The notes under the pieces were generated by a model that saw nothing but the letters and a program-made list of their open reading frames with translations, did not search any database and was not told the DNA's origin. From a virus (lineage: Duplodnaviria; Caudoviricetes): a stretch of 53,222 nt of DNA. This document shows positions 3,093 to 20,349 of the stretch, one piece after another; the first letter of the stretch is position 1; every line of letters begins with the position of its first letter. The stretch covers positions 1 to 53,222 of the IMG/VR virus record IMGVR_UViG_3300014501_000024; one strand, given 5' to 3'. The position numbers and the translations under genes are program-made.

Positions 3093-3113
3093 GTGATTGG
3101 CTCCTGTTGAGTT

Positions 3114-3128
3114 TTACTACCGTCGTAA
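3114..3128. promoter_or_regulatory. dispersed operator-like palindrome TTACTACCGTCGTAA
   Basis: identical at 23769 and 35523; reverse complement at 21390. Confidence 0.7.
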
Positions 3129-3172
3129 TTGTCGGGCAAGCCGGGGAGCTACCCCCGGCGATGCGTCACCGA

Positions 3173-4348: not shown

Positions 4349-4469
4349 AAGATTTGGTTGACCTCGGTTTTAGTTGTGATTGTTCACAGCCGCACTCGGC
4401 ATGCGGTCCGTGTAGGTGTTTGGTTTTTTACGACGGTAGTGTTTATTCAGGATGAAGGTAAGGACAATT

Positions 4470-4643
4470 TTACCTCCTACTCAACCCCAGAGCTTCGCGC
4501 CGGTCGGCTTCGGTCAGGACCTTGTTGACTTCGGCCAGCCGGTCCCATGGACCTTGTGTTGGCACCGCAGCAGCTGTCCAGCGCAAACCGTAGCGGGCAA
4601 TCAGGGCGCGGAACTCGATCATGGCTTCATCGCGGGTCATCAT
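4470..4643 (-). CDS. hypothetical protein
   Basis: ATG at 4643 overlaps the upstream stop (ATGA). Confidence 0.55.
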   Translation of the reverse strand: MMTRDEAMIEFRALIARYGLRWTAAAVPTQGPWDRLAEVNKVLTEADRREALGLSRR

Positions 4644-5098
4644 GGTGTCTCGCCCACCGGCGCACCCGTGATGTCCAGCTCGACACTCTCGTCCGCGCAG
4701 TAGGACTTGCCGCAGCTCGAACATTCATCGTCGCAGGCGCAGGACCAGTTCATGGTCCATTCCTGCCCACAGTCATCACATTGGTAGTGGTTCTCGAACA
4801 GGCATGGCTCGCCGTCGGAGTCCACGTCGCCCTTCCAGACGTCGCTGTCCGCGACCCACACCCACGCCATCACGTAGGCTCCCTGATCGTCGCTCAGCGA
4901 CACCACGGCCGAGCTGTCGATCTCCAGCTCGCCATCGCGCTGCTTGTCGCGGGCGGCCTCGACGTAGGCTTCCTCGACGCGGCCCTTCGCTTGGAACGCC
5001 ACAGTGCAGGATGCGAACGTCAAGCCCTTAGAGATCAGCGTGCGTAGCGCCGCTTGCAATTCGTCGCCGGTCAGCGTGGGTGAATTTTGTTCGTTCAT
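4640..5098 (-). CDS. hypothetical protein with C-terminal Cys-rich putative Zn-binding domain
   Basis: ATG at 5098; CDDC...WSCACDDECSSC. Confidence 0.65.
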   Translation of the reverse strand: MNEQNSPTLTGDELQAALRTLISKGLTFASCTVAFQAKGRVEEAYVEAARDKQRDGELEIDSSAVVSLSDDQGAYVMAWVWVADSDVWKGDVDSDGEPCLFENHYQCDDCGQEWTMNWSCACDDECSSCGKSYCADESVELDITGAPVGETP

Positions 5099-5153
5099 TC
5101 GATGTTCTTCTTTACTTCCGTAGTAAATGTTAGGGTGAATCAAGCAAACCCAC

Positions 5154-5507
5154 TCATCCCTTGGGGTGCGCGAGCCCGCGAGCCAGTAACTCAAGGGGAC
5201 CACATAGTGGGTTCGCAGCGTAGACATCGGTCGGTCGCTCGTTATACCAAAGTCCACCCACGTCGATGTGGTACGGTTGGCCGAAACCGAGCGCCTTGCA
5301 GATCGCGTTGACGCTATTCCTGGTGATGACCATGTTAGATCCGCACAAGCTTGTATAGATCATGCCCGTGTCGTCACCGCGCCAGGCGATGCGCCAGCGA
5401 TGGTAAACCACTTCGTCGCCCGTGCAGAAGGTGTCATACTTTGTAATAGTGGTGACACGCCTATCCTTCAGCGCTTCGGCCATGGTGGTGAAGACCGACA
5501 AGCTCAC
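5154..5507 (-). CDS. hypothetical protein
   Basis: ORF track; start overlaps the upstream gene stop. Confidence 0.5.
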   Translation of the reverse strand: MSLSVFTTMAEALKDRRVTTITKYDTFCTGDEVVYHRWRIAWRGDDTGMIYTSLCGSNMVITRNSVNAICKALGFGQPYHIDVGGLWYNERPTDVYAANPLCGPLELLARGLAHPKG

Positions 5508-5779
5508 CTAAAAATCTCCACACATAGCGTCTTATCCTGGTTGACAATCGTCGCGACTGGCACACGCGCACCGCGGCCGGCGATCATATTCCAGGCGCGA
5601 TCGAGCATGGTGGCCAGCTCCAGCGCGTCGATCGAGCCCGGCACGGTGTGCTTGCCGTCGGTCAGATAGTCCGTGGTGGCGTTCTTGACCGCGACGTGAA
5701 GCTGCTCGCTCTCGCCTTTGACCTGGAAGAAACCGTCTTTGTGGACATTGGTGTGGGTCAGATAGACGCGAAAGGCCAT
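5504..5779 (-). CDS. hypothetical protein
   Basis: ATG at 5779 preceded by AGGAG. Confidence 0.6.
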   Translation of the reverse strand: MAFRVYLTHTNVHKDGFFQVKGESEQLHVAVKNATTDYLTDGKHTVPGSIDALELATMLDRAWNMIAGRGARVPVATIVNQDKTLCVEIFR

Positions 5780-5808
5780 GGTGTTTACTCCTGTAGTAAG
5801 TGTTAACG

Positions 5809-6240
5809 CTATTTGGACAAGCCAGCGCGATACGCGAGCACGCCCAAGGGACCGCACACAATAAAGGGCTCGCCAATGTGGGTCAGTTGATCGCCAAAGA
5901 ACCACGCACTCGATTGGCCGTCGCGCCGTTCGCGCGTGATTATTCTGGGCGCACTCGTGAGCGGATCAATGGCGCGCGTTATATGCTCGATCACGCGACG
6001 CGAATACTGTGTGCTTGGCCCTGTCGGGAGAACCGCGACTAAGCTGCCCGAGGTTTCGTCGAACCACGCTATCTTTGCATCGCTTAATTTGAGCACGCCG
6101 CCATGTGTGGTCAGGTTCGCGAGCTTGTTGATGTAGATCTTGCGACCCGCGAGGAACGCCGCGATCACGAGCTGGTCGTCATTATAGGGGAATAGGTGCC
6201 GCTCGCCGTCCGCGTCCGGGTCGTGATTTTTATCGTTCAT
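5809..6240 (-). CDS. hypothetical protein
   Basis: ORF track, operon context. Confidence 0.55.
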   Translation of the reverse strand: MNDKNHDPDADGERHLFPYNDDQLVIAAFLAGRKIYINKLANLTTHGGVLKLSDAKIAWFDETSGSLVAVLPTGPSTQYSRRVIEHITRAIDPLTSAPRIITRERRDGQSSAWFFGDQLTHIGEPFIVCGPLGVLAYRAGLSK

Positions 6241-6404
6241 CGGTCCTGGCTTTCGGGTTGCATGGGTGGGTTCTCATAGTCGGAGATCGCTTGGTTCATA
6301 TCGCTGATCGCCGCCGCTCGCGGGTTATAAAATTGCCCGCGGATCAGGCCAATCACCAAAATGGCCGCGATCACCCACAGAATAAGTTTCGTGCTATTTT
6401 CCAT
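6237..6404 (-). CDS. small single-TM membrane protein (55 aa)
   Basis: MENSTKLILWVIAAILVIGLIRG..., GGGAG RBS, stop overlaps the next ATG; below the ORF-track cutoff. Confidence 0.55.
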   Translation of the reverse strand: MENSTKLILWVIAAILVIGLIRGQFYNPRAAAISDMNQAISDYENPPMQPESQDR

Positions 6405-6431
6405 GCTCTCCCAGCCCTCACTACGTAATAA

Positions 6432-6887
6432 CTTTCGGACTAGACAAAAGTTATAAGGGTCGCGGGCTGAAAAGACTGAAATTAGGCATATCAGTCACTT
6501 ACGAATTGTAGCTATCGTATCCAGGAAAATCACGTTAAGAAGGCGATTGAAGCTGTTGAAAAGACTGGTTAAAGCTATCAAAGCTATTAAAACGTCCAAA
6601 ATCTTGTATAGACACCTACAGAGATGTTCCCTATGCGCGTAACGAAAAAAGTTCATTCAATAATTTCGTGCGTAGCGCAATTTTATTTACGCCCTATAGG
6701 AAAGCCAAAAACCCGCGTATATATAAAAAAACCATAGATATAATAGTTATAATGGATATAATAATTAAAAACTCCAGCTTGCTCTAGGGCTTCCACGAAA
6801 TCGACCATAACCAAAGCCTAGCTTTTGACTAGGCTATGGTTGCTATGGTTCGCGGCTTTGGTCCAGCTAATTCTTCGCGTGTTAAAA
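6432..6887. other. AT-rich non-coding region with short repeats and an inverted repeat; candidate replication origin or promoter region
   Basis: markedly AT-rich versus the genome; GAAAAGACTG x2, AAAGCTAT x2; ACCATAACCAAAGCCTAG...CTAGGCTATGGTTGCTATGGT inverted repeat at ~6804-6850. Confidence 0.4.
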
Positions 6888-7877
6888 TTAAGCCGCCGCA
6901 AGCTCCAGATTGTCGCCCAAAAGGCTATCTACGTCCATCGCGTCGAGCACATCGTCACCCAAAACATCGGCGATCACGTCTACCTTAATAATCTTGGGTG
7001 AGTTCGTTACGGGTATAGGGAGCATCTTGGGGGTCGGCTGAAGGCCCGGCTTCGCGACCGTGACGAACGGCGAGGGCTTGTTTACTACGGAAGTGTTAAT
7101 GTTGGTCGTAACCACGGGCGTGTGCGCCTGGATGTCCTTAACATCCTCCTCAGTGAGCGCATTTTTACGTGCCTGCGCTGCGGTAACATGTTCAACGGTA
7201 ACGCGCTGCAAACTTTCGATCGCCACGCCGATGTCATCCACAGGAAAATCTGTGTGAAACTCCTGTAGCTTAGACAGAAGGTTTTCCAGCTTGGTGAACA
7301 CCTTGCCCACGTTGTGATCCGGGTCGTTCTCAATCGCGTAGTCTATCAGCGTGGCTTCTTCCTGGATAAGAATTCCATCGTTGATCGCAGCTTTCATCGC
7401 GCCGGTAATCGCGTGGTACTTGCGCTTCGCCCACTTAGCGATGGGTCGTGGCGCGCCGTCGTTCAGCTCGACCTGTTGGGCTTCATTTTCCCAAGCAAGA
7501 TTTACCACGTCGACCAACGTGCGAAAGTTATCCCGCACGGCTGGATGTGCGGCGTAGCAAATTTCATACAGGAAAGTCTTAACCGAGCTTTCTGCTTTTG
7601 GTCCGCCGTTACCCTTGACGACATCCTTGACGGCACTCTTGACTTCCTCGGGATGCCAGTTATTTTTCTCTGCGAGATCAGCAACCACAAACATAATGTC
7701 CACGCGCTTGGAATTGACCACCTCGCCCGCGGCTTTCGCAGCGTCTTTGGCGTCATTGTGAAGGCTTACATCTACGTTGATATCGGCCGCGTTGACGCGC
7801 AGCGCGCTTGCAATCTCATCAACGCGCTTTTGGTTCAGATTAAACGTCGCGCCAGTAACCTTGGTTTTCTTTGCCAT
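6888..7877 (-). CDS. hypothetical early protein (329 aa), first gene of the leftward operon
   Basis: long ORF; GGAAG RBS lies inside the conserved motif. Confidence 0.75.
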   Translation of the reverse strand: MAKKTKVTGATFNLNQKRVDEIASALRVNAADINVDVSLHNDAKDAAKAAGEVVNSKRVDIMFVVADLAEKNNWHPEEVKSAVKDVVKGNGGPKAESSVKTFLYEICYAAHPAVRDNFRTLVDVVNLAWENEAQQVELNDGAPRPIAKWAKRKYHAITGAMKAAINDGILIQEEATLIDYAIENDPDHNVGKVFTKLENLLSKLQEFHTDFPVDDIGVAIESLQRVTVEHVTAAQARKNALTEEDVKDIQAHTPVVTTNINTSVVNKPSPFVTVAKPGLQPTPKMLPIPVTNSPKIIKVDVIADVLGDDVLDAMDVDSLLGDNLELAAA

Positions 7878-7905
7878 AGTGTTGTTTACTTCCGTAGTAA
7901 ATGTT

Positions 7906-8021
7906 AAGGATGCTCGATAAACACAGGGAAAACTCCCTATGCTTGTGGAGCATCCTTGCGTGTAGGTGTGACTACACGCGCGGAAATATTAAGCTCTTGC
8001 GAGTCGCTTGCTAGGCGACTC
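7906..8021 (-). promoter_or_regulatory. tandem stem-loops in the early-operon leader
   Basis: AAGGATGCTC/GAGCATCCTT (7906-7957), GCGTGTAG/CTACACGC (7958-7979), GAGTCGC/GCGACTC (8001-8021). Confidence 0.5.
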
Positions 8022-8440
8022 AACAAGTTTGGGCTTTTAGTTGATACACGGGCTGCGGCTAAAGAGAACCGAGACTGTTCCGTGGCGGCATATCAGGTAT
8101 AACCGAGGGGGTGATACCCCTGCCTCCTGACTGTTTCATCCTTTGTATCGCTGTTCGGAAGGGATACTTCCTGCGACCCGGTTAGCTTGGTCCGGGCTTG
8201 GCACGTTACTTAGGCTGGTAATACGCTAAATCCGTTTTTATTACGTAGTAACTGGACAGGGGGTATGCCCCCGGCACCAGGGGGGCCATCTGGACAAGGG
8301 GTGGGTGGCCAGGCCCGCCCAGGTAAGTCGCTCACACAAAAATCCCAAATTTTCCAAAGCCTTATAACCACCCCTAGTGTATTCTTGTTGATCTCTCACT
8401 ATCGTCGTAAATGTTCCTGACCTCAAACCCAGGACGCACC

Positions 8441-8908
8441 ATGAGCGATACAATCCAGCCGACCGATGAGACCGCCCTCGACAGTCGTCGCGACGATGAC
8501 GGCGACACCATGGCCGTCGAGATCAGCATTCCGCCCACGCCCGATGAGGTCGCCAGGGCCGCGGCAATCCGCGCCGCGTCGGATCCTACCAAGCCGAACG
8601 CCCCGGAGGCGCCGAGCACGGCCGCGCTGGACTACGTGCCGCCTGCGCCCGATCCGAGTGCCGCGACCGAGGACGCCGCGCACGCGGCGACGAACGAGCA
8701 GGCCGAGGACGGTATACATAAGGAGAGCGGCCTCGACGCCCGGCTGCACATGGCGCACGGGCTGGCCAGGCGGGGGCTGGCCTTCGCGTCGATCAACGAT
8801 CTGGCTAAGGCGGTGTTGCTTATGCTGGACATGCACCGGACGCCGAAACCCGCCGATAGCCCGGTCGCGATCGCGGCTGCGAGAGGTGAGGGACCCCCTT
8901 TGCTCTGA
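8441..8908 (+). CDS. hypothetical acidic protein
   Basis: ATG at 8441 with AGGA RBS; phage-like codon usage. Confidence 0.65.
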   Translation: MSDTIQPTDETALDSRRDDDGDTMAVEISIPPTPDEVARAAAIRAASDPTKPNAPEAPSTAALDYVPPAPDPSAATEDAAHAATNEQAEDGIHKESGLDARLHMAHGLARRGLAFASINDLAKAVLLMLDMHRTPKPADSPVAIAAARGEGPPLL

Positions 8909-9162
8909 ACGCTTTATATTGAGAGTCTTTATATAGAGGTTGCGCCCGCACCTGGAAACCGTACTAGGTGCGGCGCGATCTTATGCGAGTGTACTCGTAA
9001 GGGACCCTAAAGAACTCCTATAGGACTCCGACAGGGCCATATGATTTGCTACCGACTCGGGTTATAGTGCGTTCGCACAATCGCTAGGGTGCTGATAAAA
9101 TACGAGTTTAGCAAATATACGGCGAGGGTGCCGTGTTGGGGTAACCAGGGATCGAGTTGCAT

Positions 9163-9615
9163 ATGCCGGTAGCGAATAGGAAAAAGCTTTCATCGACCGT
9201 GGTGCAAGAGAAGAAAGTTTGGCCGCCGTTACCAAAATTGTCGCTGAGCATGGTCATGGCGATCGAGGAATATCTTATAGAGAAGTTCAAGTCTAAGCGA
9301 CCGCCTGAAGTTAGTGCGAAAGTCTTAGCTCTGGTGATCGAACTTCATCGACGTGGCGAACCATTTCCGTTGCGCGCGCACGTCGCGCATGATTTGAACT
9401 GCTCAAAGTTTGGCGTGGACGCGGCGCTCAACATGGCGATGGCGCGCGATCTGGTTGTGCTCAAGGTGACCATTCAGGAGAGCCTGACGATTTCACACCG
9501 GCCGGCGGTCACGCAGCACCGGTTTTTCATCCCGAGCCGCCGCTTGATCGCGGCATCGGGTCAGGCGCAGTCACCGTCGCCATCATCGTCGACGCGGCGT
9601 GCCGCAGCGCAGTAG
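9163..9615 (+). CDS. putative winged-helix DNA-binding protein (matched by the mini-array spacer)
   Basis: FPLRAHVAHDLNCSKFGVDAALNMAMARDLV HTH-like pattern. Confidence 0.6.
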   Translation: MPVANRKKLSSTVVQEKKVWPPLPKLSLSMVMAIEEYLIEKFKSKRPPEVSAKVLALVIELHRRGEPFPLRAHVAHDLNCSKFGVDAALNMAMARDLVVLKVTIQESLTISHRPAVTQHRFFIPSRRLIAASGQAQSPSPSSSTRRAAAQ

Positions 9616-9735
9616 CGGCGCAATAACAAAACTTTTGTATTACGTTAACGGTTGCGTTGGTCCGCGCGCCCGCCGATAGTCGTTCGGCGAAAACGCGGAG
9701 TTGATACTGTGAACGAGGTATATTATCTAAAGCAG

Positions 9736-10080
9736 ATGGGTGACTCCACGCACATTGACGCTGGATCCAATCAGGTTAGCGGCTTCGAGCCCGGCCCTGG
9801 GGATGAGGCGCACCCCAACCACTTCCGGCTGCCGTCGCGGCCGGTGCTCAAGCGCGGGCCCCGCCTTGGGACGCCGAAGGCGGTTCGCCTGGAGCTGCCG
9901 CTCGATGACGATGACCAGCTTGAGCGCGACCTGACGGTTCTGGTTGACGCGGTGCAGCGTGCCCGCGATTTGTGCAGAAACAAGGCGCTATTGGCGCAGC
10001 CGGGCGCTCTCGGGGTCATGGTCAGGAAGCAGCTGGAGGGCGCCAACCATGTCCTGCGGCGCCGACTTCATTTACGATAA
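9736..10080 (+). CDS. hypothetical protein
   Basis: ORF track; start uncertain. Confidence 0.5.
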   Translation: MGDSTHIDAGSNQVSGFEPGPGDEAHPNHFRLPSRPVLKRGPRLGTPKAVRLELPLDDDDQLERDLTVLVDAVQRARDLCRNKALLAQPGALGVMVRKQLEGANHVLRRRLHLR

Positions 10081-10211
10081 CCGCGTTTAATCAGCGCATT
10101 GGCCGTGCGCTGATCATGGCAGATTAAATACGACGCGCTTGTGCGCAGACCCGGCTAGGAATGGGGGCGAATAAATACTACTGTCGTAAGATACGGCGAA
10201 GGCGCCCGGCC

Positions 10212-10556
10212 ATGTCCGAGATCACCAAGCGGTTCAGCGTTGTCGAGATCATCGGCGTGATCGTGTTTGTCGGCGGGGTTGTCGGGAGCGTCTACACGCT
10301 CGGCGTCTACATGCAGACGCAGAAATCAATGGTGGCGCAGATGGTCCAGAATAGCGCCGACTCCAAGGCTGCCACCGCCGCCGAGATGGAAGATCTCAAG
10401 CGTGACATTACCAGCCGCTCGCAGGCGGCCGACAGCGCCCGCGACGAGATGACCCACTCGCTCAACGATCTGAGCGGCAAGGCTGCGCAGAACACCGCAG
10501 TGCAAGCCTTCATGATCGAGGAATTGAAAGAGTTGAGGATGGGATCACACCGATGA
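10212..10556 (+). CDS. membrane protein of the lysis cassette (holin- or i-spanin-like)
   Basis: one N-terminal TM followed by coiled coil; upstream of the endolysin. Confidence 0.55.
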   Translation: MSEITKRFSVVEIIGVIVFVGGVVGSVYTLGVYMQTQKSMVAQMVQNSADSKAATAAEMEDLKRDITSRSQAADSARDEMTHSLNDLSGKAAQNTAVQAFMIEELKELRMGSHR

Positions 10557-10969
10557 ATGTGTGCGTGTATGTGCTGCTGTTCGTGCTGGTGGGATGTGGC
10601 GACCACCGAGCCGCCATGGTGCCGGTGGCCGACGTTATACCAGAGCCCGCCGCGATCGTGGTGCCGCGCGTGCGTCATCCTGCGGCACCCCCGGCAGCGG
10701 AGGCTGGCCCGGCCGCTCCAGCGTCGCCGGCGAGCGTCGCCGCGGTGATCCGTGACAGCAACTCGCTCATCGACAAAACCTATCGGTATGTCGAGTTCAA
10801 GGACGCCAGGGCCGACAATGTCCGCACGCTGATCCAGCTCAAGCACGCCGTCGACCGCGCCAATGATGCCGTTATCAACCACCACCATCCGACCACTGAG
10901 GAAGTCGCGGCGGCACGTCACGCGGCGGACGACCTCGCGCACTTTTTCGCCACCAAGGATGACGACTGA
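10553..10969 (+). CDS. putative lipoprotein (spanin-like)
   Basis: lipobox LVGC, Pro/Ala linker, overlaps neighbouring genes. Confidence 0.55.
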   Translation: MNVCVYVLLFVLVGCGDHRAAMVPVADVIPEPAAIVVPRVRHPAAPPAAEAGPAAPASPASVAAVIRDSNSLIDKTYRYVEFKDARADNVRTLIQLKHAVDRANDAVINHHHPTTEEVAAARHAADDLAHFFATKDDD

Positions 10970-11484
10970 TGGACCTTTTCCAGACTTGCTACGCCTTCAC
11001 GAAAGGCGCCGAGGGTGGTGTGGTCAACAACCCCGACGATCCTGGCGGCTTGACCAATACCGGCCTCACGCTGCCCGACTTGCGGCGATTTTCGCGCACG
11101 GCGACTGCATCCGATCTGATGACGCTGACCGACGGCGAGATCCAGGCGATCTACCTGGCACTTTACTTCTTGCCCGTCGCGGGCTGGCAACTTCCCAAGC
11201 CGCTTGCACTGATGGTGTTCGACCATGGCGTGGCGGCGGGAGTGGGTGACAGCGCCATGCTGCTGCAGGGGCTGCTGCTGGTCGAGGTTGATGGCTATAT
11301 CGGATCGCAGACGCTGGCCGCAGCGGACGCCGTCACGGCCGCCGAGATGCCGGGCTTCGTGACCGCTCTGTCCGCCGCACAGGGTGCCGATTATGCCCGC
11401 AAGGCCGACGCGCGGTTTTTCCTCAAGGGTTGGGACCTTCGGCTCGACGCGCGCACCACAGCCGCAAAGGCGCTCATCACATGA
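10969..11484 (+). CDS. endolysin, glycoside hydrolase family 108
   Basis: EGG..NPDDPGGLTNxG motif, FDHGV, DGYIGSQT, FLKGW..R. Confidence 0.9.
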   Translation: MDLFQTCYAFTKGAEGGVVNNPDDPGGLTNTGLTLPDLRRFSRTATASDLMTLTDGEIQAIYLALYFLPVAGWQLPKPLALMVFDHGVAAGVGDSAMLLQGLLLVEVDGYIGSQTLAAADAVTAAEMPGFVTALSAAQGADYARKADARFFLKGWDLRLDARTTAAKALIT

Positions 11485-11936
11485 ACACCACCGCGATCAT
11501 TGGTCTTTCCGTTGTGCTGTGGGCGCCGCTCGCCGGCATGGCCGCGTGGGGCCTGCGCAAACTGGCCGTCTATATGCAGGCCAGAGGTTATAACGACTCC
11601 CTGGTGAAGATCGCCGGCGGCGCCGCGACGCAAGCAGGGCTGATTTCACTCGACCTGCAAAGGCTGCCGCCTGGCGCCAGCCTCGATGCCGCCAAGACGA
11701 TGCTGCTGACGGACGGCGTCACCGCCATGAAGACCGTGTTCGCGGAGTCCATCGCGACAACCGGCTACAGCGACACCCAGCTGCTGGACAAGCTGGCGGG
11801 CGCGCTCGGCAACAACCCGCTCCACGCTGCCCTGGTGGCGCCGGCCGTGGTGGCGCCGGCCGTGGTGGCAGTGCCAGCAACCCAACTCGCCTCTGTTCTC
11901 GGTCTCACACCTGGACTCGGAAAGGTTTCACCATGA
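11481..11936 (+). CDS. putative holin or membrane protein
   Basis: N-terminal TM; ATGA overlap with the endolysin. Confidence 0.5.
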   Translation: MNTTAIIGLSVVLWAPLAGMAAWGLRKLAVYMQARGYNDSLVKIAGGAATQAGLISLDLQRLPPGASLDAAKTMLLTDGVTAMKTVFAESIATTGYSDTQLLDKLAGALGNNPLHAALVAPAVVAPAVVAVPATQLASVLGLTPGLGKVSP

Positions 11937-12265
11937 CACGCCTGTACGCGATCGCGCTCGCCGCGACCGGCCTGGCTCTCACCAGTTGCAGTGGCACCGC
12001 CACGCCGCCACCGCCGGTGACACCCGTGGTGGCGGCCGAGGCCGCGCTCGCCGCCGCTGGCCATATCGTGCTCGGCTGCTACGCGGTGCCGGCCTGCGTG
12101 GCGGTCGCACCCAAGCCGGCGATCAAGAAGGCTTATGACGCGGCCTACAACGCGGTCACCGCCGCGCAGACCGTGGCTGATGCTGGCGGATCGCCGGACA
12201 TGACCGCGGCGACGGCCGCGATGTCGGGGCTCCAGAGCCTCATCGACCAGCTCCCCGCCACATAG
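11933..12265 (+). CDS. putative lipoprotein
   Basis: lipobox LTSC after a hydrophobic stretch. Confidence 0.6.
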   Translation: MTRLYAIALAATGLALTSCSGTATPPPPVTPVVAAEAALAAAGHIVLGCYAVPACVAVAPKPAIKKAYDAAYNAVTAAQTVADAGGSPDMTAATAAMSGLQSLIDQLPAT

Positions 12266-12274
12266 GAGGTTCTC

Positions 12275-12460
12275 ATGCCCATCGCGCTCATCGTTGAAAT
12301 CATCCAGGCCATCGCGGCACTGGCACCCCAGGTGCCTGAAGTTGTCTCGCTCGCCGAGTCGGCCATCGGCATCGTCCAGACTGGGACCGTGACGCCGGAC
12401 CAAGAAGCGCTGATCCGCAGCCAGCTCGATGCAATCAAGGCGCAGATCGACGCCGCGTGA
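12275..12460 (+). CDS. small hypothetical protein
   Basis: strong AGGAGG RBS. Confidence 0.65.
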   Translation: MPIALIVEIIQAIAALAPQVPEVVSLAESAIGIVQTGTVTPDQEALIRSQLDAIKAQIDAA

Positions 12461-12559
12461 GGCGGGGCAGGTCAGGCGTTTGTTGCGCGACGCGCTGACC
12501 GCCGCTTAGTGCCGGCCCTCGGTAATCCCGTGAATGACAGCCGGGGGTCGGCACGCTCC

Positions 12560-13225
12560 ATGAACGACGTGGTCAACTTGCGGATATGGGCGTTCGCGGC
12601 CGACACCAACTCCAAGATGTATCGCGATCTGATGGCGGCGGCGCGCGTGCTCGAACGTCAGCAAGGCGACATTCGCAGACTGACCGATTTGCTTCTGCTC
12701 TACGCCAAGCCCGAGAACGTTCAGCCCGAGCACCGCGCGATGATCGAGGCGTTGAGCGAGGCGAGTGATACCGGGTTAACAACCACGGCAAACCTGTGCT
12801 ACGACAACCTGGATAACAACCAGGGAATACCCAAGATTATGGCCATTAAGCCCGAGAATATCGAGACGATCCAGCAATGGGGGATCAAGAGCATCTCCAA
12901 GCGTGTGGTCGATGAGATCATGGCGGCGGCGCCGAAGATGGAACCCAAGAAAACCAGCGGCCAGATGATCGAGATGATCTGGGAGTTCTGGAAGACCAAC
13001 GGTGTCACCGAGCAGGTCAACGTGGTGGAGGATCTGACCGCCCTGCTGACCGCCGCCGGTCCGTGGAATGAGCACAACCCGCTGCCGGCCGACGCCAGGG
13101 CGTTCATCAACACGTTCGCGCGGGCGGCGCGCAAGCAGCTTCAACCAAGTTCACAACCCGGTATCGCCATCGGGTCCAAGTCTGAGCCGAAGCAGCTTGC
13201 CAATGGGGCAGTGAACGACGGATAG
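12560..13225 (+). CDS. hypothetical protein (possible internal start at ~12839)
   Basis: ORF track; phage-like codon usage. Confidence 0.6.
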   Translation: MNDVVNLRIWAFAADTNSKMYRDLMAAARVLERQQGDIRRLTDLLLLYAKPENVQPEHRAMIEALSEASDTGLTTTANLCYDNLDNNQGIPKIMAIKPENIETIQQWGIKSISKRVVDEIMAAAPKMEPKKTSGQMIEMIWEFWKTNGVTEQVNVVEDLTALLTAAGPWNEHNPLPADARAFINTFARAARKQLQPSSQPGIAIGSKSEPKQLANGAVNDG

Positions 13226-13313
13226 GTTCATCCGCACCACTCGGGTGCGACACTTTCGCGCTAACCTCGGGCGGGCGCTTTTGAGGGTTCATCCGCACCC
13301 ACTTGGATGCGAC
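13224..13313 (-). CRISPR. cas-less CRISPR-like mini-array (repeat-spacer-repeat), type I-E-like
   Basis: minus-strand repeats GTCGCATCCAAGTGGGTGCGGATGAACCC (13285-13313) and GTCGCACCCGAGTGGTGCGGATGAACCT (13224-13251); 61-bp period; hairpin plus ATGAACC 3' end; 33-nt spacer similar to 9291-9323. Confidence 0.6.
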
Positions 13314-13322
13314 TCGATCCAA

Positions 13323-13841
13323 TCATAACTGGTGCGCACCTGTCCAGGGCTGCCCCGGTCGCCACCCTGCGTCCAATCGCCGCCTGATCTCCGTCTGCCG
13401 CGCCGCCAACAGGTCGATGCAGGCGCGGGGCTGCGCTGGTTGGGGCCGCTCCTCTCTCGTTAAGCCTTTCTCTTTCTTCTCTTGCTTCCTTTGTTGGCCA
13501 TTCTGTCCACCTGGACAGACCAGCTCGGTCGGCACCTGGATGGTGTAGCGGTTCGGCCCTTGCCGCCAGCTTCCGTTGACCAGCTTGCGGGTCGGCCGCC
13601 ACGACAGCATCCCTAGATTTTTCGCATCCACCCGCGCCCGGCGCACGGTGCGGGCGCTGGTGCCGGCCAGCTCGGCCACGGCAGCGTCCGATGGGTACAG
13701 CCCATCCTCGCCATGGAACGCCAGCAAGGCACGCAAGGCATCGCGTCGGGCCGGGGTCAGGTGGCCGGCGCGGCGTTCCAGTTCCAGCCGGCGACGCCAG
13801 ACAGGGAACTCGTCGGGCTCAAGCCATTGTAAAGCAGACAT
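13323..13841 (-). CDS. winged helix-turn-helix protein (HTH_36/Rep-like)
   Basis: GLYPSDAAVAELAGTSARTVRRA...LGMLSW...NRY pattern. Confidence 0.7.
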   Translation of the reverse strand: MSALQWLEPDEFPVWRRRLELERRAGHLTPARRDALRALLAFHGEDGLYPSDAAVAELAGTSARTVRRARVDAKNLGMLSWRPTRKLVNGSWRQGPNRYTIQVPTELVCPGGQNGQQRKQEKKEKGLTREERPQPAQPRACIDLLAARQTEIRRRLDAGWRPGQPWTGAHQL

Positions 13842-14222
13842 AGTTCGGGTGTTCCTCGGTTAAGGCCGAGGCGCAGCGAGGCTGCCGACAGGACGCAGTT
13901 TCCCCACAGCAAGGGGGCTTGCTTTTTTCGCTGACACCGATGAAACTGGGGTTCTCACACGCTCCAGTTTCGTCGGTTTTGGCTAGTCCTGCGGCGCCCC
14001 AACGGGCGCCGTTGGCATTTCTAGCTCATCTCAATCTCCAGCGGTTCCCCGCAACCTACTGGCAACGGGGCAGGTAAATTGGCGCACTATCCGAGTCGGC
14101 GCTATAGCTGACGGCCACGCTAAGTTTTTGTGTCCGCAAAAGTCAACGTCGCGTGGTTTCGACCTTAGTTGCGTGGTTGGTGGAATCGGTGACGTTCCTT
14201 ACCCCGAACAAGGGGTGCAACA

Positions 14223-14609
14223 TTGCCAAAACCGCGGACCCGTCTGGAGGAGATCATGCGGGCGCGAGCATTGACCCAAGCCGAATTAGGCCGTCTGGCT
14301 GACATCGACACCGCGCACCTGAGCCGGTTGGCGATTGGCAAGCAGGATCTCGGCCCCAAGACGCGGCGGAACTTGGCCGGCGCCTTGCGTGTCGGCGAGG
14401 CTGACCTGCTTCAGCCGATTGGCACCGAGATTCCGCCGGAACCTATCGGTGACGTACGACTACCGGGCTTTGACGAACGACTTCAGGCTATTCTTATCGT
14501 GCTCGGCGTCGAGCGCCTCGTCGATCTAACCCGGTTCTTGGCCACTGGGGATTATAGCGGATTGCCGCCGGCACTGGCGCAGCGGGTGCGTCAGATCTTG
14601 TCGTTGTAG
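14223..14609 (+). CDS. XRE-family HTH transcriptional regulator
   Basis: LTQAELGRLADIDTAHLSRLAIG...LAGALRV; divergent from the wHTH gene. Confidence 0.8.
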   Translation: MPKPRTRLEEIMRARALTQAELGRLADIDTAHLSRLAIGKQDLGPKTRRNLAGALRVGEADLLQPIGTEIPPEPIGDVRLPGFDERLQAILIVLGVERLVDLTRFLATGDYSGLPPALAQRVRQILSL

Positions 14610-14617
14610 GGGTGAGT

Positions 14618-14816
14618 ATGACCGATCCTTAGACCTATCCACGTCGCCCTCGACGATGCTGACTTCACCACCCTCATCACCGGTGGCATCGTTGAGAAGC
14701 CAGGGGTTCGGATTATCCTGTCCGACATCGGCTATGGCGCGATGGTCAAAATCTTGTCCGACGCGATGCTCAAGGCCGTGCAAGCCACCAAGGCTGCGGA
14801 AGATCTTATTACGTAA
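14618..14816 (+). pseudogene. small gene interrupted by a +1 frameshift
   Basis: ATG ACC GAT CCT TAG; the +1 frame continues LRPIHVALDDADF...EDLIT* with phage-like codon usage. Confidence 0.35.
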
Positions 14817-14820
14817 TAAA

Positions 14821-16251
14821 TCAGGTCCAACCCCCCGCATTGACGGGCGCGCGGTTCACTATCCTGGGCCGGTCCCTGAGTATGACCCGCCCTGTGATGT
14901 TCGCGCTCACTCCCAGACACAGATATTCCAGGGCGTCCGCTAGATCGCTCCAAGGGTGTAATTTCTCGGGTGTGTCCTCAAGCTGGCCGTTCCTGAGTTT
15001 GCGGTAGCGATACTTGTTGCCCATCGCGTGGATCAGCGTGGGGCACCCGGTGCGCGAGATCTGGAGCGCGGGCTCGCCCATCACATTGGACCGCAGCTGT
15101 TTCTCCACCGCGGCGATGCGCGGCGCGATCGCGTTGGTGTTCGCCGGGTAGGCAAGCAACCCCGCCTCTTTGAGCGCGTCGAACGCATTGCGCTCGCTGA
15201 GCTGGGACCGCTGGTTGCCGGCCGGGTCCGCCACCACGAACGAGCGCTTGCCGGCGTAGGGCTCGCCCAAGAGCTTGGGCTTGAGGTACTCGACCAGGAA
15301 CTGATCCAGTCCCACATCCTCGCCGCAGACTTCTTCGAACACCAGCAGGCGCCCGAGGCTGTCCACCTGGCCGATCAGCGCCGTGGGCGTGCGTCCCAGA
15401 TCCAGGCCGACCATGATCGGCCGCATCGGGTTCACCACCACCTCCATGTCGCGGACGTGGGTGGGCACGTGGAAGCTGCGCCTGAACACCGCTTGACCTG
15501 CGTTGGAGGTGCCCCATTGGCTCTCCACATGCACGGCCGACCACTCCTCATCATGTACGGTCGACCGATCCTCATCGCCGCCGTTCATGAGGTTTTCGTA
15601 GTAGTTGGGTGGCAGGTTCGCGAGGTTCTCGGCGTCTGGGCCGACCGCCGAGGGTTGGTGAAACAGCTTCCAGTTTGCACGAGGGTTCAGCACGAAGCGT
15701 TCGTGGTAAGGGCTGTCAGTGTCCCACGGGTTGGTATCTGCGATCAGACCAAACCACGACGGACCGCCCTGGAGCTTGGACGGATAGCGTCCAAGCCGTC
15801 CGATCAACGGCGGGATGATGCCGATCGGCACCTCGCGGATCTCGTTCACCCAGGCGCCGGTGAGCTGCATGGAGAGCAACCGGCGTTGATCCTCGACGGT
15901 GTCCAGCGGGATCATCACCCAGTCGCTATGCACGATCGAGCCGTCGCTCAAAGGGGCGCGTATGCGTATGGTGCTGTCGGTTACGAAGTAGCTGATCATT
16001 GGCTGGAGATATTGCTGCACGTCTGTCAGCACGGTGGTGCGCAGTTGCTGGAGCGTGTTCCTGACGATAGTAAATCGGGAGTAGCGGATGTTGGTGCCCG
16101 TGGCGGGCGCTTGCTGGGTGGACCGGCGGAAGATCTCCATGATGGAGCCCATGGATTTTCCCGACCCGACCGGTCCGACCAGACATCGGACCAGGCTGTC
16201 GTCCATCATGAAAAGTTCTATTGTCGGAGGGGGGCGGTACACTAAAGTCAT
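14821..16251 (-). CDS. terL: terminase large subunit
   Basis: Walker A GPVGSGKS, Walker B AWVNE, DTNP coupling motif, nuclease GLDLG...DPAG...SDLADALEY. Confidence 0.93.
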
Positions 16252-16730
16252 ATTACAGCCTCAATATAAACTGCCGCTGCCCGTAGCAATTCAGGATCGT
16301 CCTTAAATCTACCTAAACCGTTATTGCAATTATTGCACAGTAACCCACGCACTATCTTATGAGCGTGACAATGATCTATGGCTAACCGACGCTTTGCGGC
16401 GGAAGGTTTCTTGCAGATAGCACAAACACCTCCTTGAGCTGTGAGCACGGCGTCATACTCGGCGACGGTCAGACCATAAACGCCTACGGCGTGTCGCCGG
16501 CGCGCGGCTGCGAGCATTGTCGGGTCTGCTCTTGCACGCCAGATTTTCCGTGTGGCTTTCACTTTTTGCGGATTAGCCTGCTGCCATTTCTGCGTTGCTG
16601 CTAGAGACTTTTCGCGGTTGGCTCTCTGCCACGCTAGGCGTTTGACACTCACCCGTTCTTTGTTAGCGGCATACCAGCGTACTGCGATGGCGTTCTTCTT
16701 TAGTCGCTGTTCTTCAGTAAGGATTTTCAT
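16248..16730 (-). CDS. endonuclease VII-family (HNH-like) endonuclease
   Basis: YGLT..EY....QGGVCAIC...IDHCH...[18 protein letters not shown]; lower GC than flanks. Confidence 0.88.
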
Positions 16731-16787
16731 TTGTTGACTATAGCCAATAAGACAAGACTGGTAAATCGAAATGGTCATACCGGGTTG

Positions 16788-16943
16788 CTAACCCGGGGGG
16801 ACCGTGAACAACCGTAGCGTCTCGCTGTATAAAATCAGCTCGTCTTTTAATTGACCCAGCGCATTTAGCAGTTCTCGGAGCGCATCCTCTAAGATCAGCT
16901 TGGCGAGGGCTTCGTCTGATAGGTCTAGGTTTAGGTCTACCAT
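16788..16943 (-). CDS. small hypothetical protein
   Basis: ATG at 16943 overlaps the upstream gene end; MVDLNLDLSDEALAK... Confidence 0.45.
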   Translation of the reverse strand: MVDLNLDLSDEALAKLILEDALRELLNALGQLKDELILYSETLRLFTVPPG

Positions 16944-17116
16944 CGTGCGTAGCCGCCGTAGTAGCCATACCCGCCGCCGGCTAGCAGCACGACGACAACG
17001 ACGATGAGGATGATTACCAGCGGGTTGTTCAGCTGGATCGCGCCGGTTCGGTGGCCGATATAGCCACCGCCGCCGAACAGCACGAACACCACCAGGATGA
17101 TGAGGAGCAGGCTCAC
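16937..17116 (-). CDS. small two-TM membrane protein (DUF3309-like)
   Basis: GTG start; LLLIILVVFVLFGGGGY...IILIVVVVVLLAG. Confidence 0.65.
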   Translation of the reverse strand: MSLLLIILVVFVLFGGGGYIGHRTGAIQLNNPLVIILIVVVVVLLAGGGYGYYGGYARW

Positions 17117-17457
17117 GGGCCCGCACTCTTGCTCTGGAAGATGCGCTCGCGCAGGGCGTAGCCTTCCAGCGGCCATAGCTGGCGGATGGCGTCTTCCCAG
17201 GCGAACCTTGAGCCGAGTGCCGCATCGAAATTTTCCGGCGAGGCAGGTGCCGACTTGCTGATCACGGTGAAGCCGTTCTCCATCACACAGATGCAGATTG
17301 TCAGAATTTTGAGTTCCGGCTGGTGCGGGCCGCCAGGGACTTGGTCAGCGGTGAAAACATGCTGGGCTTTAATTTTCGCCTTCATGTCGTCGAGCGTGAC
17401 ACGCGGCGCCACGGCGACCGCAGCGGCTTCCTGGTCCGAGATTTCCAAGCTGCTCAT
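17113..17457 (-). CDS. phage Gp49/Gp66-family protein
   Basis: APRVT...LTIC..VMENGFTV..SA.ASPENFD...LWPLEGY. Confidence 0.85.
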   Translation of the reverse strand: MSSLEISDQEAAAVAVAPRVTLDDMKAKIKAQHVFTADQVPGGPHQPELKILTICICVMENGFTVISKSAPASPENFDAALGSRFAWEDAIRQLWPLEGYALRERIFQSKSAGP

Positions 17458-18023
17458 GGTATAGGTTCTCCGTCGATGGTTGGGGTTTGTTGAATTACGT
17501 TGATCGACTCGGTTTTGCCGGTGCCCGAGAACACGAACTGCACGCTGAACATGGGCCCGGTGACCGCGTCCGCGTTGTTCGCGCCGCCGGTGCGGTTGTC
17601 GGCGCCGCCGAACCGGCCGCTGACTTCGAGCATCTTCACCCGCAATGCCGCCGGCGTGAGCGGATCGGCGATCATCTTATGGGCGACGCCGGCCGACTCC
17701 AGCGTGAGCTGCCCATACATGCGCCTGATGCGTTCGGGTTGGTTGTCATCTGACTCCCAGATCGCCTTGCGCACCTTGATGCGCCGCCGCACCTCGGGGA
17801 TTTTCAGGAACTCCAGCAGCTGGGCGGCTGACAATCCATAGCGGGCCGCGATCACATGCGGCCTGACCATGTTGATGCCCAAATCGTTGATCAAGTTTTG
17901 CGTCGTAAGATCGTCCGGGTCGAACTCCCGCAGTGTCGCCACAGGTGTTGCGTCGACCAGCGAGTAGACGTGCTTTTCGAACTGCGCTTCTTCGCTCTCG
18001 GCCTCTACCATTAAACTATCCAT
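17454..18023 (-). CDS. putative terminase small subunit
   Basis: first gene of the terL operon; HTH-like IAARYGLS; beta-rich C-terminal tail. Confidence 0.55.
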   Translation of the reverse strand: MDSLMVEAESEEAQFEKHVYSLVDATPVATLREFDPDDLTTQNLINDLGINMVRPHVIAARYGLSAAQLLEFLKIPEVRRRIKVRKAIWESDDNQPERIRRMYGQLTLESAGVAHKMIADPLTPAALRVKMLEVSGRFGGADNRTGGANNADAVTGPMFSVQFVFSGTGKTESINVIQQTPTIDGEPIP

Positions 18024-18062
18024 ACGGCGTCCTTGCCATCGGGGCGTTACAGGTCTAACGAT

Positions 18063-18083
18063 TATTTACGACCGTAGTAAATA
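18063..18083. promoter_or_regulatory. operator-like palindrome between the divergent terminase and portal operons
   Basis: TATTTACGACCGTAGTAAATA. Confidence 0.7.
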
Positions 18084-18093
18084 GGTTGCCGGT

Positions 18094-20349
18094 TTGCCGC
18101 AAGCGATCCCAGGTGCAAGCGTCAGTACGCCGCCCGCCACAAGTCCGTTTGGCGGGTCACGCCCGAACTCGGGCGCCGTCAGCTCGGGCCATGGCTTGCT
18201 ACGGGTGGTCTCCAACGCGCAGCTCAACGAACATCACCGCAACCTCAAGGCGCAACAGGCCGACGCGGCCGCCAAAACCTTACCGACCACGGATCTCGGA
18301 AGTTTTATCCGCAGGCGTTGGGAGGCTTTCCGCAATCATCGCAACCAGGGGACCGACCCTCTGAACGAGCGCCTGTTGCGGGCGCAGCGCATGTTTGAGG
18401 GGCGCTACGATGAGAATAAACTGGCGGAAATCGCCAAGTTCGGCGGCAGCAGGGTCTACGCGCGCACCGTTGCGGTGAAATGCCGCGGTGCCGCCAGTCT
18501 GCTGCGGGACGTCTATCTCGGCCCCGATCGCCCATGGGATATCCAGCCGCAGCCGGACCCCAAGGTGCCGCCCGAGATCCAGGCCCAGATCATGCAGCTG
18601 GTGAGCACCGAGGTCGGTACACAGAAAGCTTCTGGTGCGCCGATCCTGGAGGATCAGGTGCATATGCGCTATTTGGGCCTGATGCACGCGGCGCAGGCCG
18701 CCGCCCGGCAGAACGCGCTCAACCAGGCCAAGACCACCTCCGACAAGATCGAGGATATCCTGGTCGCGGGCGGGTTTTATGAGGCGCTGACCGAGTTCCT
18801 GACCGACCTGCCGCTGTTCCCATTCGCGTGCATCAAAGGCCCCGTCGTGCGGATGGTGCCCAATCTCACCTGGAAGAACGGCAAAGCCTCGCTGGTCAAC
18901 AAGGCGCAGATGTTTTGGGAGCGGATAAGCCCGTTCGACGTTTACTGGTCGCCTGGCGCCAGTCGCATTGCCGACGCCGAGGTCATCCAGCGCAAGCGGC
19001 TCACCCGCACCGATCTCAATGATTTGTTGGGTCTACCCGGCTACGATCAGGACGCGGTGCGTGCCTGCCTGGAGGATTACCGGCTCGGCCTGCGCGACTG
19101 GCTCGACGCGCCCGACACCGAGCAGGCGCTCAACGAGGGCCGGGAAAATCCTTGGACCAACCAGTCGCAGATGATCGACGGGCTGGAATACCACGGCAAC
19201 GTGCAGGGCCAGATGCTGCTGGATCAGGGGGTGAACCCCAAGCTGATCAAAGACCCCGATCGGGATTACGCGGTGCAGTCCTGGGTGGTCGGTCGCCACA
19301 CGCTGAAGACGATCCTCAATCCGAGCCCGCGTCAGCGGCATTCCTATTTCATGACATCGTTCGAGAAAGTGCCTGGCACTGTCTCGGGTCATGCGCTGCC
19401 TGAACTGCTTGAGGATGTGCAGGAGGTCACCAATGCTGCTTATCGAAGCCTGGTTAACAACCTGGCTATCAGTTCTGGACCCCAGGTGGTGGTCAACGAC
19501 GAGATGCTATCGCCCACCGAGTCGGGCGACGAGCTATACCCTTGGAAACGTTGGCACATCACCGGTGATCCGATGTCCAACCAACGTGAGCCCATTACGT
19601 TCTTTCAGCCGCAGAGCAACGCGCAGGAACTGCTGAGCGTCATCGCCGCGATGGATGGCCGCGCTGACGAGACCAGCGCCATCCCTAAATATCTCACCGG
19701 CAGCTCGCTCGCCGGCGGCGCTGGCCGCACCGCCTCGGGCCTCTCGATGCTCATGGGCAACGCCGAGAAGATCCTCCAGACGGTGGCGGCCAACGTCGAT
19801 ACCGACGCGATGCGGCCGTTGCTGACGGCGCTCTACGACATGATCATGCTTACTGACACCTCCGGCATGCTCACTGGCGAGGAAGAAATCCGCGTGCGGG
19901 GTGTCAATGTCGCCACGCAGAAAGAAACCGAGCGTCAGAAGCAACTACAGTTCCTCCAGATTACTGCGAACCCGATCGACGGCCCGATCATCGGCACGTT
20001 GGGCCGGGCGCGCGTGCTTCGCGCCATCGCGCAGGATCTTGGATTGCCCGACAACATCGTTCCTGATGATCAGACGCTACAGCAGCAACAGGACGAGCAG
20101 AAGCAGATGCAGGCTGCGCAGGTAGGCCAGCCGCCTCCGCCGGGCACACCGGGTGCGCCGCCGGGTGCGCCAGGCGCTCCACCACCGCCGGGGCCTGGAG
20201 GGTCAGGCACTCCCAGTCAAGCCGGACCAGGCACACCGCCCGGCAACGCGGCGCAGGGCAATCAGCCGCCGCATCCGGGGCCGGCACAGCCGGGTCCACC
20301 GCCGGTGAATGCGTTCCAGCAGGGCATTCCAGGGAGGATGGCAGCATGA
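18094..20349 (+). CDS. portal protein
   Basis: 751 aa; GPVV..., GRTASGLSMLM motif; Pro/Gln-rich C-terminus; first gene of the head operon. Confidence 0.85.
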   Translation: MPQAIPGASVSTPPATSPFGGSRPNSGAVSSGHGLLRVVSNAQLNEHHRNLKAQQADAAAKTLPTTDLGSFIRRRWEAFRNHRNQGTDPLNERLLRAQRMFEGRYDENKLAEIAKFGGSRVYARTVAVKCRGAASLLRDVYLGPDRPWDIQPQPDPKVPPEIQAQIMQLVSTEVGTQKASGAPILEDQVHMRYLGLMHAAQAAARQNALNQAKTTSDKIEDILVAGGFYEALTEFLTDLPLFPFACIKGPVVRMVPNLTWKNGKASLVNKAQMFWERISPFDVYWSPGASRIADAEVIQRKRLTRTDLNDLLGLPGYDQDAVRACLEDYRLGLRDWLDAPDTEQALNEGRENPWTNQSQMIDGLEYHGNVQGQMLLDQGVNPKLIKDPDRDYAVQSWVVGRHTLKTILNPSPRQRHSYFMTSFEKVPGTVSGHALPELLEDVQEVTNAAYRSLVNNLAISSGPQVVVNDEMLSPTESGDELYPWKRWHITGDPMSNQREPITFFQPQSNAQELLSVIAAMDGRADETSAIPKYLTGSSLAGGAGRTASGLSMLMGNAEKILQTVAANVDTDAMRPLLTALYDMIMLTDTSGMLTGEEEIRVRGVNVATQKETERQKQLQFLQITANPIDGPIIGTLGRARVLRAIAQDLGLPDNIVPDDQTLQQQQDEQKQMQAAQVGQPPPPGTPGAPPGAPGAPPPPGPGGSGTPSQAGPGTPPGNAAQGNQPPHPGPAQPGPPPVNAFQQGIPGRMAA

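Follow-up and report, generated by a model that had tools for sequence, protein, structure and literature searches.

A probable CRISPR-derived mini-array with a phage-gene spacer in a podovirus-like genome

A repeat-spacer-repeat unit resembling a CRISPR array lies at positions 13224-13313 of a phage genome, the IMG/VR virus record IMGVR_UViG_3300014501_000024. The window analysed is the complete record, which is linear, 53,222 bp long and estimated to be 84% complete. The unit has two hairpin repeats on the minus strand and, between them, a spacer that matches a gene of the phage itself through a core in which all differences are synonymous. Its anatomy, its likeness to genuine arrays and the mobile-element origin of its spacer make a CRISPR-derived unit the best reading, and a probable one. 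The full proposal goes further, to a CRISPR RNA (crRNA) that would be made by read-through from a neighbouring helix-turn-helix (HTH) gene and processing by a host Cas6e-type nuclease, and that would direct a host effector against matching relatives while the phage's own allele is spared. This is put forward with the chances for and against it about evenly balanced, because the unit fits published mini-arrays in all but a host-identical repeat and a targeted relative.

Structure of the unit

The unit occupies an intergenic gap of 97 nt and consists of a first repeat (R_A), a 33 nt spacer-like segment and a second repeat (R_B); all of its sequences are given here in the minus-strand reading direction (Table 1). 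R_A starts 9 nt past the TGA of the minus-strand HTH gene 13323-13841, and the end of R_B coincides with the stop codon of the convergent gene 12509-13225. Alignment of R_A with R_B gives 25 identical columns out of 29, the differences being two substitutions, a 1 nt deletion in the loop and the last base, and the full 14 nt 3' part and the hairpin are intact in both. Their period is 61 nt between repeat ends and 62 nt between repeat starts.

R_A is predicted to fold into an 8 bp stem with a tetraloop and an 8 nt tail (-11.8 kcal/mol), a stability reached by 3 of 200 shuffled sequences. The R_B fold has a 7 bp stem and a 5 nt loop, with 7 of 200 shuffles as stable. Taken whole, the 121 nt region folds no more stably than shuffled sequences, with z -1.65 on one strand and -1.44 on the other. 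The coordinates and the folds bear out an earlier note on this DNA, which had described two hairpin repeats with a 61 nt period 9 nt downstream of an HTH gene.

The exact 14-mer common to R_A and R_B has no third site anywhere in the 53 kb window. Exact 14-mer pairs 40-100 nt apart occurred in 5 of 200 Markov-simulated windows, and the real window has further pairs at this distance, all of them within structural genes. Exact direct repeats of at least 14 nt, 45-72 nt apart, are present within large structural genes at 27848-27938, 38386-38686 and 42859-42907 and resemble the tandem coding repeats of tail and virion proteins.

A CRISPR array is generically taken to have at least two direct repeats of 23-47 nt, with unique spacers of about equal length between them. 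The unit has these at the minimum repeat number. The AT-rich leader that is also a mark of CRISPR arrays is missing, there being just 9 nt between the HTH stop codon and R_A.

The spacer and its match to gene 9157-9615

The last 29 nt of the spacer match positions 9295-9323, within the phage's own gene 9157-9615, at 25 of 29 nt, and all four differences fall at third codon positions. The tenth codon, GTG in the spacer and GTC in the gene, adds a fifth synonymous difference. Since all five are synonymous, the ten codons encode KRPPEVSAKV in both. The match at 25 of 29 nt with synonymous differences only had been claimed in the earlier note, and the alignment upholds it with one more synonymous site. 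The gene is 3.9 kb from the unit, and the matching site is inside its coding region, at codons 46-56.

The similarity is sharply bounded. When the 34 nt stretch between the 28 nt repeat cores is taken, the match is 25 of 34, and the maximum over 100 simulated windows is 23. Local alignment of 250 nt around the unit with the whole target gene returned exactly the 29 nt core. The upstream flank of the unit gave nothing against the target gene, 190 of 300 shuffles scoring as high. The downstream flank gave one gapped, non-collinear match, inside the convergent gene, which was equalled by 5 of 300 shuffles and is taken as chance. The earlier note had named similarity extending into the repeats as the sign of a decayed paralogue; by these alignments and shuffles it stops at the repeats. 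CRISPR spacers derive from foreign or mobile DNA, and this one is a sharply delimited piece of a gene family of phages.

At the protein level, a minus-strand open reading frame (ORF) across the unit showed nothing convincing against the target protein outside the 10-residue block. An open frame of 71 codons at 13107-13325 on the minus strand follows the TGA of the HTH gene in frame and crosses both repeats and the spacer; read-through would add KRPPEVSAKV to the HTH protein. It shares ~120 nt with the convergent gene and is probably there by chance. The target protein and the neighbouring HTH protein were also compared as possible paralogues, and this was not supported (BLASTP E 2.6).

An AAG triplet at 9289-9291 had been proposed as a protospacer-adjacent motif (PAM) directly 5' of the protospacer. 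The triplet is present, but it has this position only for a 32 nt spacer starting at 13283, a boundary that is arbitrary. With the repeat ends observed, the ungapped 33 nt unit starts opposite 9291 and overlaps the AAG, and on that reading the argument from the PAM fails. If one A of a run of four were dropped, the unit would become 32 nt long, read in frame as Ser-Lys-Arg..., match 9292-9323 at 27 of 32 nt and have AAG directly 5', which is a tentative reading of the alignments.

Table 1. Positions of the unit, its match and the flanking genes in the window.
Feature	Position	Strand	Length	Sequence	Remarks
Repeat R_A	13313..13285	-	29 nt	GTCGCATCCAAGTGGGTGCGGATGAACCC	First in reading direction; tail AUGAACCC
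Spacer-like unit	13284..13252	-	33 nt	TCAAAAGCGCCCGCCCGAGGTTAGCGCGAAAGT	Last 29 nt match 9295-9323
Repeat R_B	13251..13224	-	28 nt	GTCGCACCCGAGTGGTGCGGATGAACCT	More degenerate copy: loop 1 nt shorter, last base T
Target gene	9157..9615	+			Holds imperfect protospacer; two homologues; winged-helix-like predicted fold
Imperfect protospacer	9292..9323	+			Core 9295-9323 at 25/29; 9292-9294 unmatched without a gap
AAG triplet, proposed PAM	9289..9291	+			PAM only under a 32 nt spacer
HTH gene	13323-13841	-	172 aa		Weak replication-initiator similarity: phrog_270 (3.6e-6), phrog_391 (1.7e-4)
Convergent gene	12509-13225	+	238 aa		No known family (Pfam/PHROGs); stop codon abuts R_B

Origin of the spacer allele

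The protein encoded by the target gene has no match in Pfam or PHROGs. Two homologues, with 63% and 59% identity, were found in a large protein collection, and few parts of the family are as conserved as the block around KRPPEV(S/A)AKVLALV. In an AlphaFold2 model based on the three sequences (pLDDT 76), the protein is predicted to form four helices and a beta hairpin. The best Foldseek matches are winged-helix proteins of the TFIIE, MarR and ArsR types, with E values of 5.6e-3 or weaker. For the modelled protein, 'winged helix-like' is a fair label; the winged HTH gene of the earlier note keeps that much from the weak structural matches, but gains nothing from Pfam or PHROGs.

A metagenome search with the single target protein found nothing, and one with the three-sequence alignment found only a contig of 1167 nt (L004), which carries one of the homologues as DNA. 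By hand count, L004 agrees with the 30 nt spacer core at 23 of 30 positions. Of the five codons that set the spacer apart from the phage's own gene, three (CCC, GAG and GTG) are shared with L004; at GTT, AG(C/T), GCG and AAA the spacer follows the own gene and L004 departs from it. At the five differing codons the spacer ends in G or C, the corresponding bases in the own gene being A, T, A, T and C. As the spacer has G or C at these codons, its source allele would be the GC-richer at third positions.

That all five differences are synonymous suggests that the source of the spacer evolved as a working gene. Such a pattern would be expected of a fragment of a working homologue, not of a copy that decays where it lies. 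The spacer thus resembles a natural allele, the third of this small winged-helix-like gene family.

The repeats and genuine arrays

The second of two scans of the ~185,000 species genomes sought two copies of the 11 nt tail GCGGATRAACC with a distance of 44-58 nt. It gave 76 loci, most of them chance pairs or tandem coding repeats and a few of them real arrays. The locus closest to R_A (L023) is on a contig of an Acidiphilium sp. metagenome-assembled genome (MAG), with 22 of 28 positions identical; the next best has 20. It is an array of six identical 29 nt repeats (GTCGCGCCTGCGTGGGCGCGGATGAACCC), except that the last differs at its final base, with a 61 nt period, unrelated 32 nt spacers and an AT-rich leader. 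With the shared final C its repeat agrees with R_A at 23 of 29 positions, of which 11 were set by the search pattern; among the remaining 17 positions of the 28 nt core, 11 agree.

The Acidiphilium repeat and R_A have an identical predicted dot-bracket fold. Of the six differences between them, three are in the loop and three in the stem (A6-U17 to G6-C17, U7-G16 to C7-G16 and C9-G14 to U9-G14). In an alignment of five repeats, 87% of cells pair, against 35-56% with slid partners. One stem pair (6-17) is changed on both sides, and the observed covariation score is reached by 14 of 500 shuffles. With five sequences, this gives the shared stem modest covariation support.

No cas (CRISPR-associated) gene was found within the 8 kb examined near the Acidiphilium array. 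Its flanks encode an integrase, a resolvase, an IS481-like transposase with an AAA ATPase, and a Tn3 transposase. On contig L099 of the Acidiphilium MAG, a six-repeat array (4178-4510) is followed 4.5 kb on by a two-repeat mini-array of the same repeat (9025-9114). The DNA immediately after the first array and that immediately before the second read as an imperfect inverted repeat. Between them are a resolvase, an IS481-like transposase, an AAA ATPase and an SDR gene, an arrangement that looks like a single array divided by a transposon, and a Tn3 transposase comes next. The sole Cas1 detected in this MAG is beside another array (L098, ~13090-19000), with 88 copies of a different 33 nt repeat at a period of 66-69 nt, which is presumably type I-C-like. 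Two unrelated repeat classes therefore coexist in this MAG.

The tail and the period recur in another array (L018), from a Rhodospirillaceae MAG. It has ten repeats, including two degenerate terminal ones, and comes directly after genes for Cas1e (TIGR03638, 6e-83, above the cut-off) and Cas2e (TIGR01873, 2.7e-25), which links the repeat class to type I-E adaptation genes. Upstream of these are a DinG-type helicase and weak Csf2-like and Csf3-like genes, all below the family cut-offs. In the order of the locus (1-6425), a 254 aa weak Csf3-like gene, a 740 aa DinG/Csf4-like helicase and a partial, weak Csf2-like gene precede Cas2e and Cas1e. The locus may combine a type IV-A-like effector with a type I-E-type adaptation module of its own.

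The phage repeats appear to belong to a rare class of 29 nt repeats with 32-33 nt spacers that has genuine arrays in two alphaproteobacterial MAGs. When the 102 spacers of the two MAGs were compared with the window, the longest match was 19 nt with two mismatches, or 14 nt exact, and is taken as chance.

Related phages and cas genes

Other phages with such an array were sought in IMG/VR. The tail combined with the start of the next repeat gave one chance match, in a coding region, and the two-copy tail pattern gave three matches, all of them tandem coding repeats, so that no other phage contig with an array of this type emerged. A search of IMG/VR with the target protein or the HTH protein for related loci found nothing. 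Six relatives were identified by their terminase (58-64% identity); by tblastn, four of them share a 189 aa gene and three the portal. Their loci contain no HTH gene, 238 aa gene, target gene or tail motif.

No cas family was found among the 38 phage ORFs scanned against Pfam or PHROGs, and six-frame searches for Cas1, Cas6e and Cas7e found nothing. The Cas6e and Cas7e blanks are weak, because the controls for these two rang in Thermus only. The statement in the earlier note that the window has no cas genes holds across these ORFs and, for the three families named, the six frames of this record, itself an estimated 84% complete. With one spacer and no cas genes on the virus, the unit has the content of a viral mini-array.

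Proposed function

As proposed, read-through from the HTH gene would bring about early transcription of the unit, and a host Cas6e-type nuclease would cut at the base of each hairpin to give a crRNA of ~61 nt with the 8 nt 5' handle AUGAACCC. This crRNA would be loaded into a host effector, either a type I-E-like or a related type IV-A-like complex, and a co-infecting related phage with an exactly matching allele would be attacked. The own copy would be spared, its site being altered at five synonymous positions and at the 3-4 repeat-proximal (seed) bases. From transcription onward, these are steps that we infer. The attack on a sibling phage had been the first reading offered in the earlier note, and it agrees with the viral mini-arrays described in the available text of two papers (PMC6858448, PMC7099407), but the perfect allele was not found in IMG/VR and that of L004 is imperfect.

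Several observations weigh against an active unit of this type. The perfect match in related phages that the earlier note had suggested looking for did not appear: both the exact spacer 30-mer and a codon-degenerate pattern for KRPPEVSAKV have 0 matches in IMG/VR. An exact or near match in a related virus is therefore wanting, with none in IMG/VR and 23 of 30 in L004, in collections that are incomplete. In the full records of five relatives (one of them 97% complete; L103 excluded), the target family was found in 0 of 5 and the repeats in 0 of 5. The exact repeat, allowing Y at the variable stem base and a loop of 4-5 nt, has 0 matches in the ~185,000 species genomes, and the nearest genuine repeat agrees at just 23 of 29 positions, against the host-identical repeats of published mini-arrays in the accessible parts of PMC7099407 and PMC11656645. 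Outside the Acidiphilium MAG, no array of the class was found in the sampled 401 family, 18 genus and 401 class genomes.

The unit itself adds to these points. It has no more than two repeats, the second of them imperfect, a scan between the HTH gene and R_A revealed no promoter-like site, and the spacer has 33 nt against the usual 32 nt in the Acidiphilium and Rhodospirillaceae arrays (with the repeat counted as 29 nt). Without a gap, its first 3-4 bases, next to the repeat, are unmatched both in the own gene and in L004. As these bases need a gap, the unit may carry a 1 nt insertion and be decaying. There is also a possible cost to the carrier, since an imperfect self-match could trigger primed adaptation against it, as the accessible text of PMC7099407 indicates; this would apply to the present phage if the host system primes.

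Alternative readings

Much of this would suit a CRISPR-derived relic, captured from a host array or from a relative and no longer processed or used. The loop deletion and changed last base of R_B, the length of the spacer relative to the two bacterial arrays, the 1 nt gap in the A run by which alone its 5' end fits the gene family, and the absence of a target, a host array and a promoter from the IMG/VR, species-genome and promoter scans all point that way. Both hairpins and the full 14 nt 3' part are nonetheless intact in both copies, and working arrays usually end in a repeat that is slightly degenerate; in the Acidiphilium array, too, the final base of the last repeat differs. The gap that holds the unit is tight, and phages would usually lose useless DNA from such a place. 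A relic is on balance unlikely.

A pair of hairpins that has nothing to do with CRISPR, such as sites for the HTH protein, iterons or paired terminators enclosing the remnant of a paralogous gene, is suggested by the convergent gap, where terminators are expected, and by the weak resemblance of the neighbouring gene to replication initiators. However, a terminator scan found no site at 13224-13313, and the hairpins are followed by GATGAACC and not by T-runs, which would be U-runs in the RNA. In favour of this reading, Rfam returned no CRISPR repeat family for the phage unit at E values up to 10, and the repeat is identical to that of no array found. The Rfam result carries no weight, because the genuine Acidiphilium array also receives no CRISPR family. 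The similarity to the gene is confined to a core of 29-31 nt, only two copies of the repeat exist in the window, and fold, length, period, tail and spacer size all match genuine arrays. An origin unrelated to CRISPR is accordingly given a small share of the probability.

The unit might instead be an RNA anti-CRISPR, or a crRNA-like decoy or regulator of the Racr/Cracr type, whose repeats would soak up or re-programme host Cas proteins and whose spacer would be secondary. Phage-borne solitary repeats and mini-arrays with such roles are described in the accessible text of three reports (PMC10651486; bioRxiv 10.1101/2024.10.29.618823; PMC11656645), and the present unit, without cas genes or a leader and in an early regulatory neighbourhood, would be in keeping with them. 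Racrs are described as solitary repeat units, though, and here there are two repeats with a spacer that is of normal size, full length and derived from a phage gene. A decoy is doubtful on these grounds.

A variant of the favoured proposal concerns the effector. It is improbable, but conceivable, that the unit feeds a type IV-A-like effector, one that lacks a nuclease and works with type I-E-style repeats, and not a DNA-cutting type I system. This reading arises because the only cas-linked array of the tail class pairs Cas1e and Cas2e with DinG-like, Csf2-like and Csf3-like genes. The outcome would then be silencing of the winged-helix gene of relatives, or tuning of the phage's own copy through the 25/29 pairing.

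Type I complexes need pairing of the repeat-proximal seed. The earlier note's second reading, repression of 9157-9615 through partial pairing with the crRNA, which would thereby sense host CRISPR, is very improbable: the 25/29 match to a gene 3.9 kb away, the AAG beside the protospacer under the 32 nt reading and the existence of crRNA-like regulators with partial pairing (in the part available of bioRxiv 10.1101/2024.10.29.618823) speak for it, but the 3-4 repeat-proximal bases do not pair with the own gene, which makes self-repression unlikely under the type I rules, the site is within the coding region and not in a promoter, and mismatches that are all synonymous are as seen between diverged alleles, not in a tuned regulator.

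The phage and the neighbourhood of the unit

By Pfam and PHROGs, the phage encodes a terminase, an SU10-type portal, a major head protein, tail and internal virion proteins, a GH108 endolysin, a DUF927 primase-helicase-like protein and a 2375 aa polyvalent protein. It is podovirus-like and probably a lytic soil phage. Its nearest cultured relatives are Rhizobium phages (capsid 59% and terminase 43% identity), which makes an alphaproteobacterial host plausible from the sequence comparisons. A megablast of positions 8000-20000 against a cultured-phage collection gave no match. The record probably comes from the permafrost metagenome run that contains the DNA of the window; positions 8000-14936 are unchanged in the contigs of that run, which is not independent evidence. 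Two peat runs have only identical pieces of 151 nt, away from the array.

Both ORFs flanking the unit have the high GC content at third codon positions (GC3) of real genes, 0.75 for the HTH gene and 0.80 for the 238 aa gene. A gap of 380 nt (13842-14222) separates the HTH gene from a divergent XRE-type HTH gene (14223-14609). The divergent HTH pair resembles a regulatory switch region, and the mini-array sits at the end of one of its arms. The target gene, with a GC3 of 0.67, is included in a stretch (6001-10000) of lower GC, 0.50-0.59 as against about 0.62-0.65 elsewhere.

Further away, the 2375 aa protein (40643-47770, plus strand) has an LPD39 'large polyvalent protein' domain, and a 438 aa protein (349-1665, minus strand) has DUF2201 metallopeptidase and VWA-like domains.

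Significance

If active, the unit would be one more bacterial case, from a probably lytic soil phage, among the few virus-borne mini-arrays that have been documented. It would be a clean case, with spacer and own allele diverging at nothing but synonymous sites and the seed, and would illustrate the way in which a phage may target a conserved gene in its relatives and yet leave itself unharmed. A rare 29/32 repeat class in the Alphaproteobacteria also comes into view, with genuine arrays on transposon-rich DNA or beside Cas1e and Cas2e in an unusual combination with type IV-like genes. A host array and a matching rival phage are the two facts that would make the case compelling. The phenomenon and its logic are already in print, as the accessible text of three papers makes clear (PMC6858448, PMC7099407, PMC11656645), and no new category is created.

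Comparison with known systems

RNA anti-CRISPRs and viral crRNA-like regulators, as far as the accessible parts of PMC10651486 and bioRxiv 10.1101/2024.10.29.618823 describe them, are similar to the phage unit in being cas-less, repeat-derived RNA genes that need host Cas proteins. They differ in being solitary repeats or in having short or partial spacers aimed at the promoters of host cas or toxin genes, whereas the phage unit is not a solitary repeat and has a full-size spacer from a phage gene.

Type IV-A systems, found on plasmids and prophages, have DinG, Csf2 and Csf3, silence without a nuclease and use spacers from type I-E machinery. The Rhodospirillaceae locus is alike in its DinG-type helicase and weak Csf2-like and Csf3-like genes, but the Csf matches are far below the cut-offs and nothing ties the phage itself to type IV-A. 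Type IV systems act in competition between mobile elements, according to the available text of PMC11656645.

With type I-E arrays the unit shares the layout of a 29 nt repeat, a hairpin and an 8 nt tail (AUGAACCC) in the place of the handle, and a spacer of 33 nt, one over the standard 32 nt. The type I-E handle of E. coli is ATAAACCG, which the phage tail resembles. The Rhodospirillaceae array, of the same tail class, adjoins Cas1e and Cas2e. The sequence and register of the phage stem differ from the common I-E repeat, however, and no I-E effector gene is linked to the repeat class in the loci analysed. The type I-E label suggested in the earlier note is not established: layout, hairpin and tail agree with it, but the only cas-linked array of the tail class, that of the Rhodospirillaceae MAG, has weak type IV-like genes beside Cas1e and Cas2e.

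The closest comparison is with the mini-arrays of other viruses. Virus-borne CRISPR mini-arrays in inter-virus conflict were reportedly treated by Faure et al. in 2019 (cited in PMC7099407 and PMC6858448). They are also the subject of Medvedeva et al. 2019 (PMC6858448, accessible part). In the available text of the published accounts, these mini-arrays have 1-2 spacers and no cas genes, often target nearby genes of close relatives, and are carried by viruses whose own orthologous sites bear point mutations or deletions (PMC6858448, PMC7099407, PMC11656645); those of phages are without leaders (PMC6858448). The present unit departs from them in that no array with its exact repeat was found in the species genomes, the best genuine one agreeing at 23 of 29 positions, and in that the targeted relative was not found in IMG/VR. 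In all else it is alike: a single spacer enclosed by two repeats, the lack of cas genes, an intergenic position, no leader, the gene of the spacer a few kb away, and point differences at the carrier's own orthologous site.

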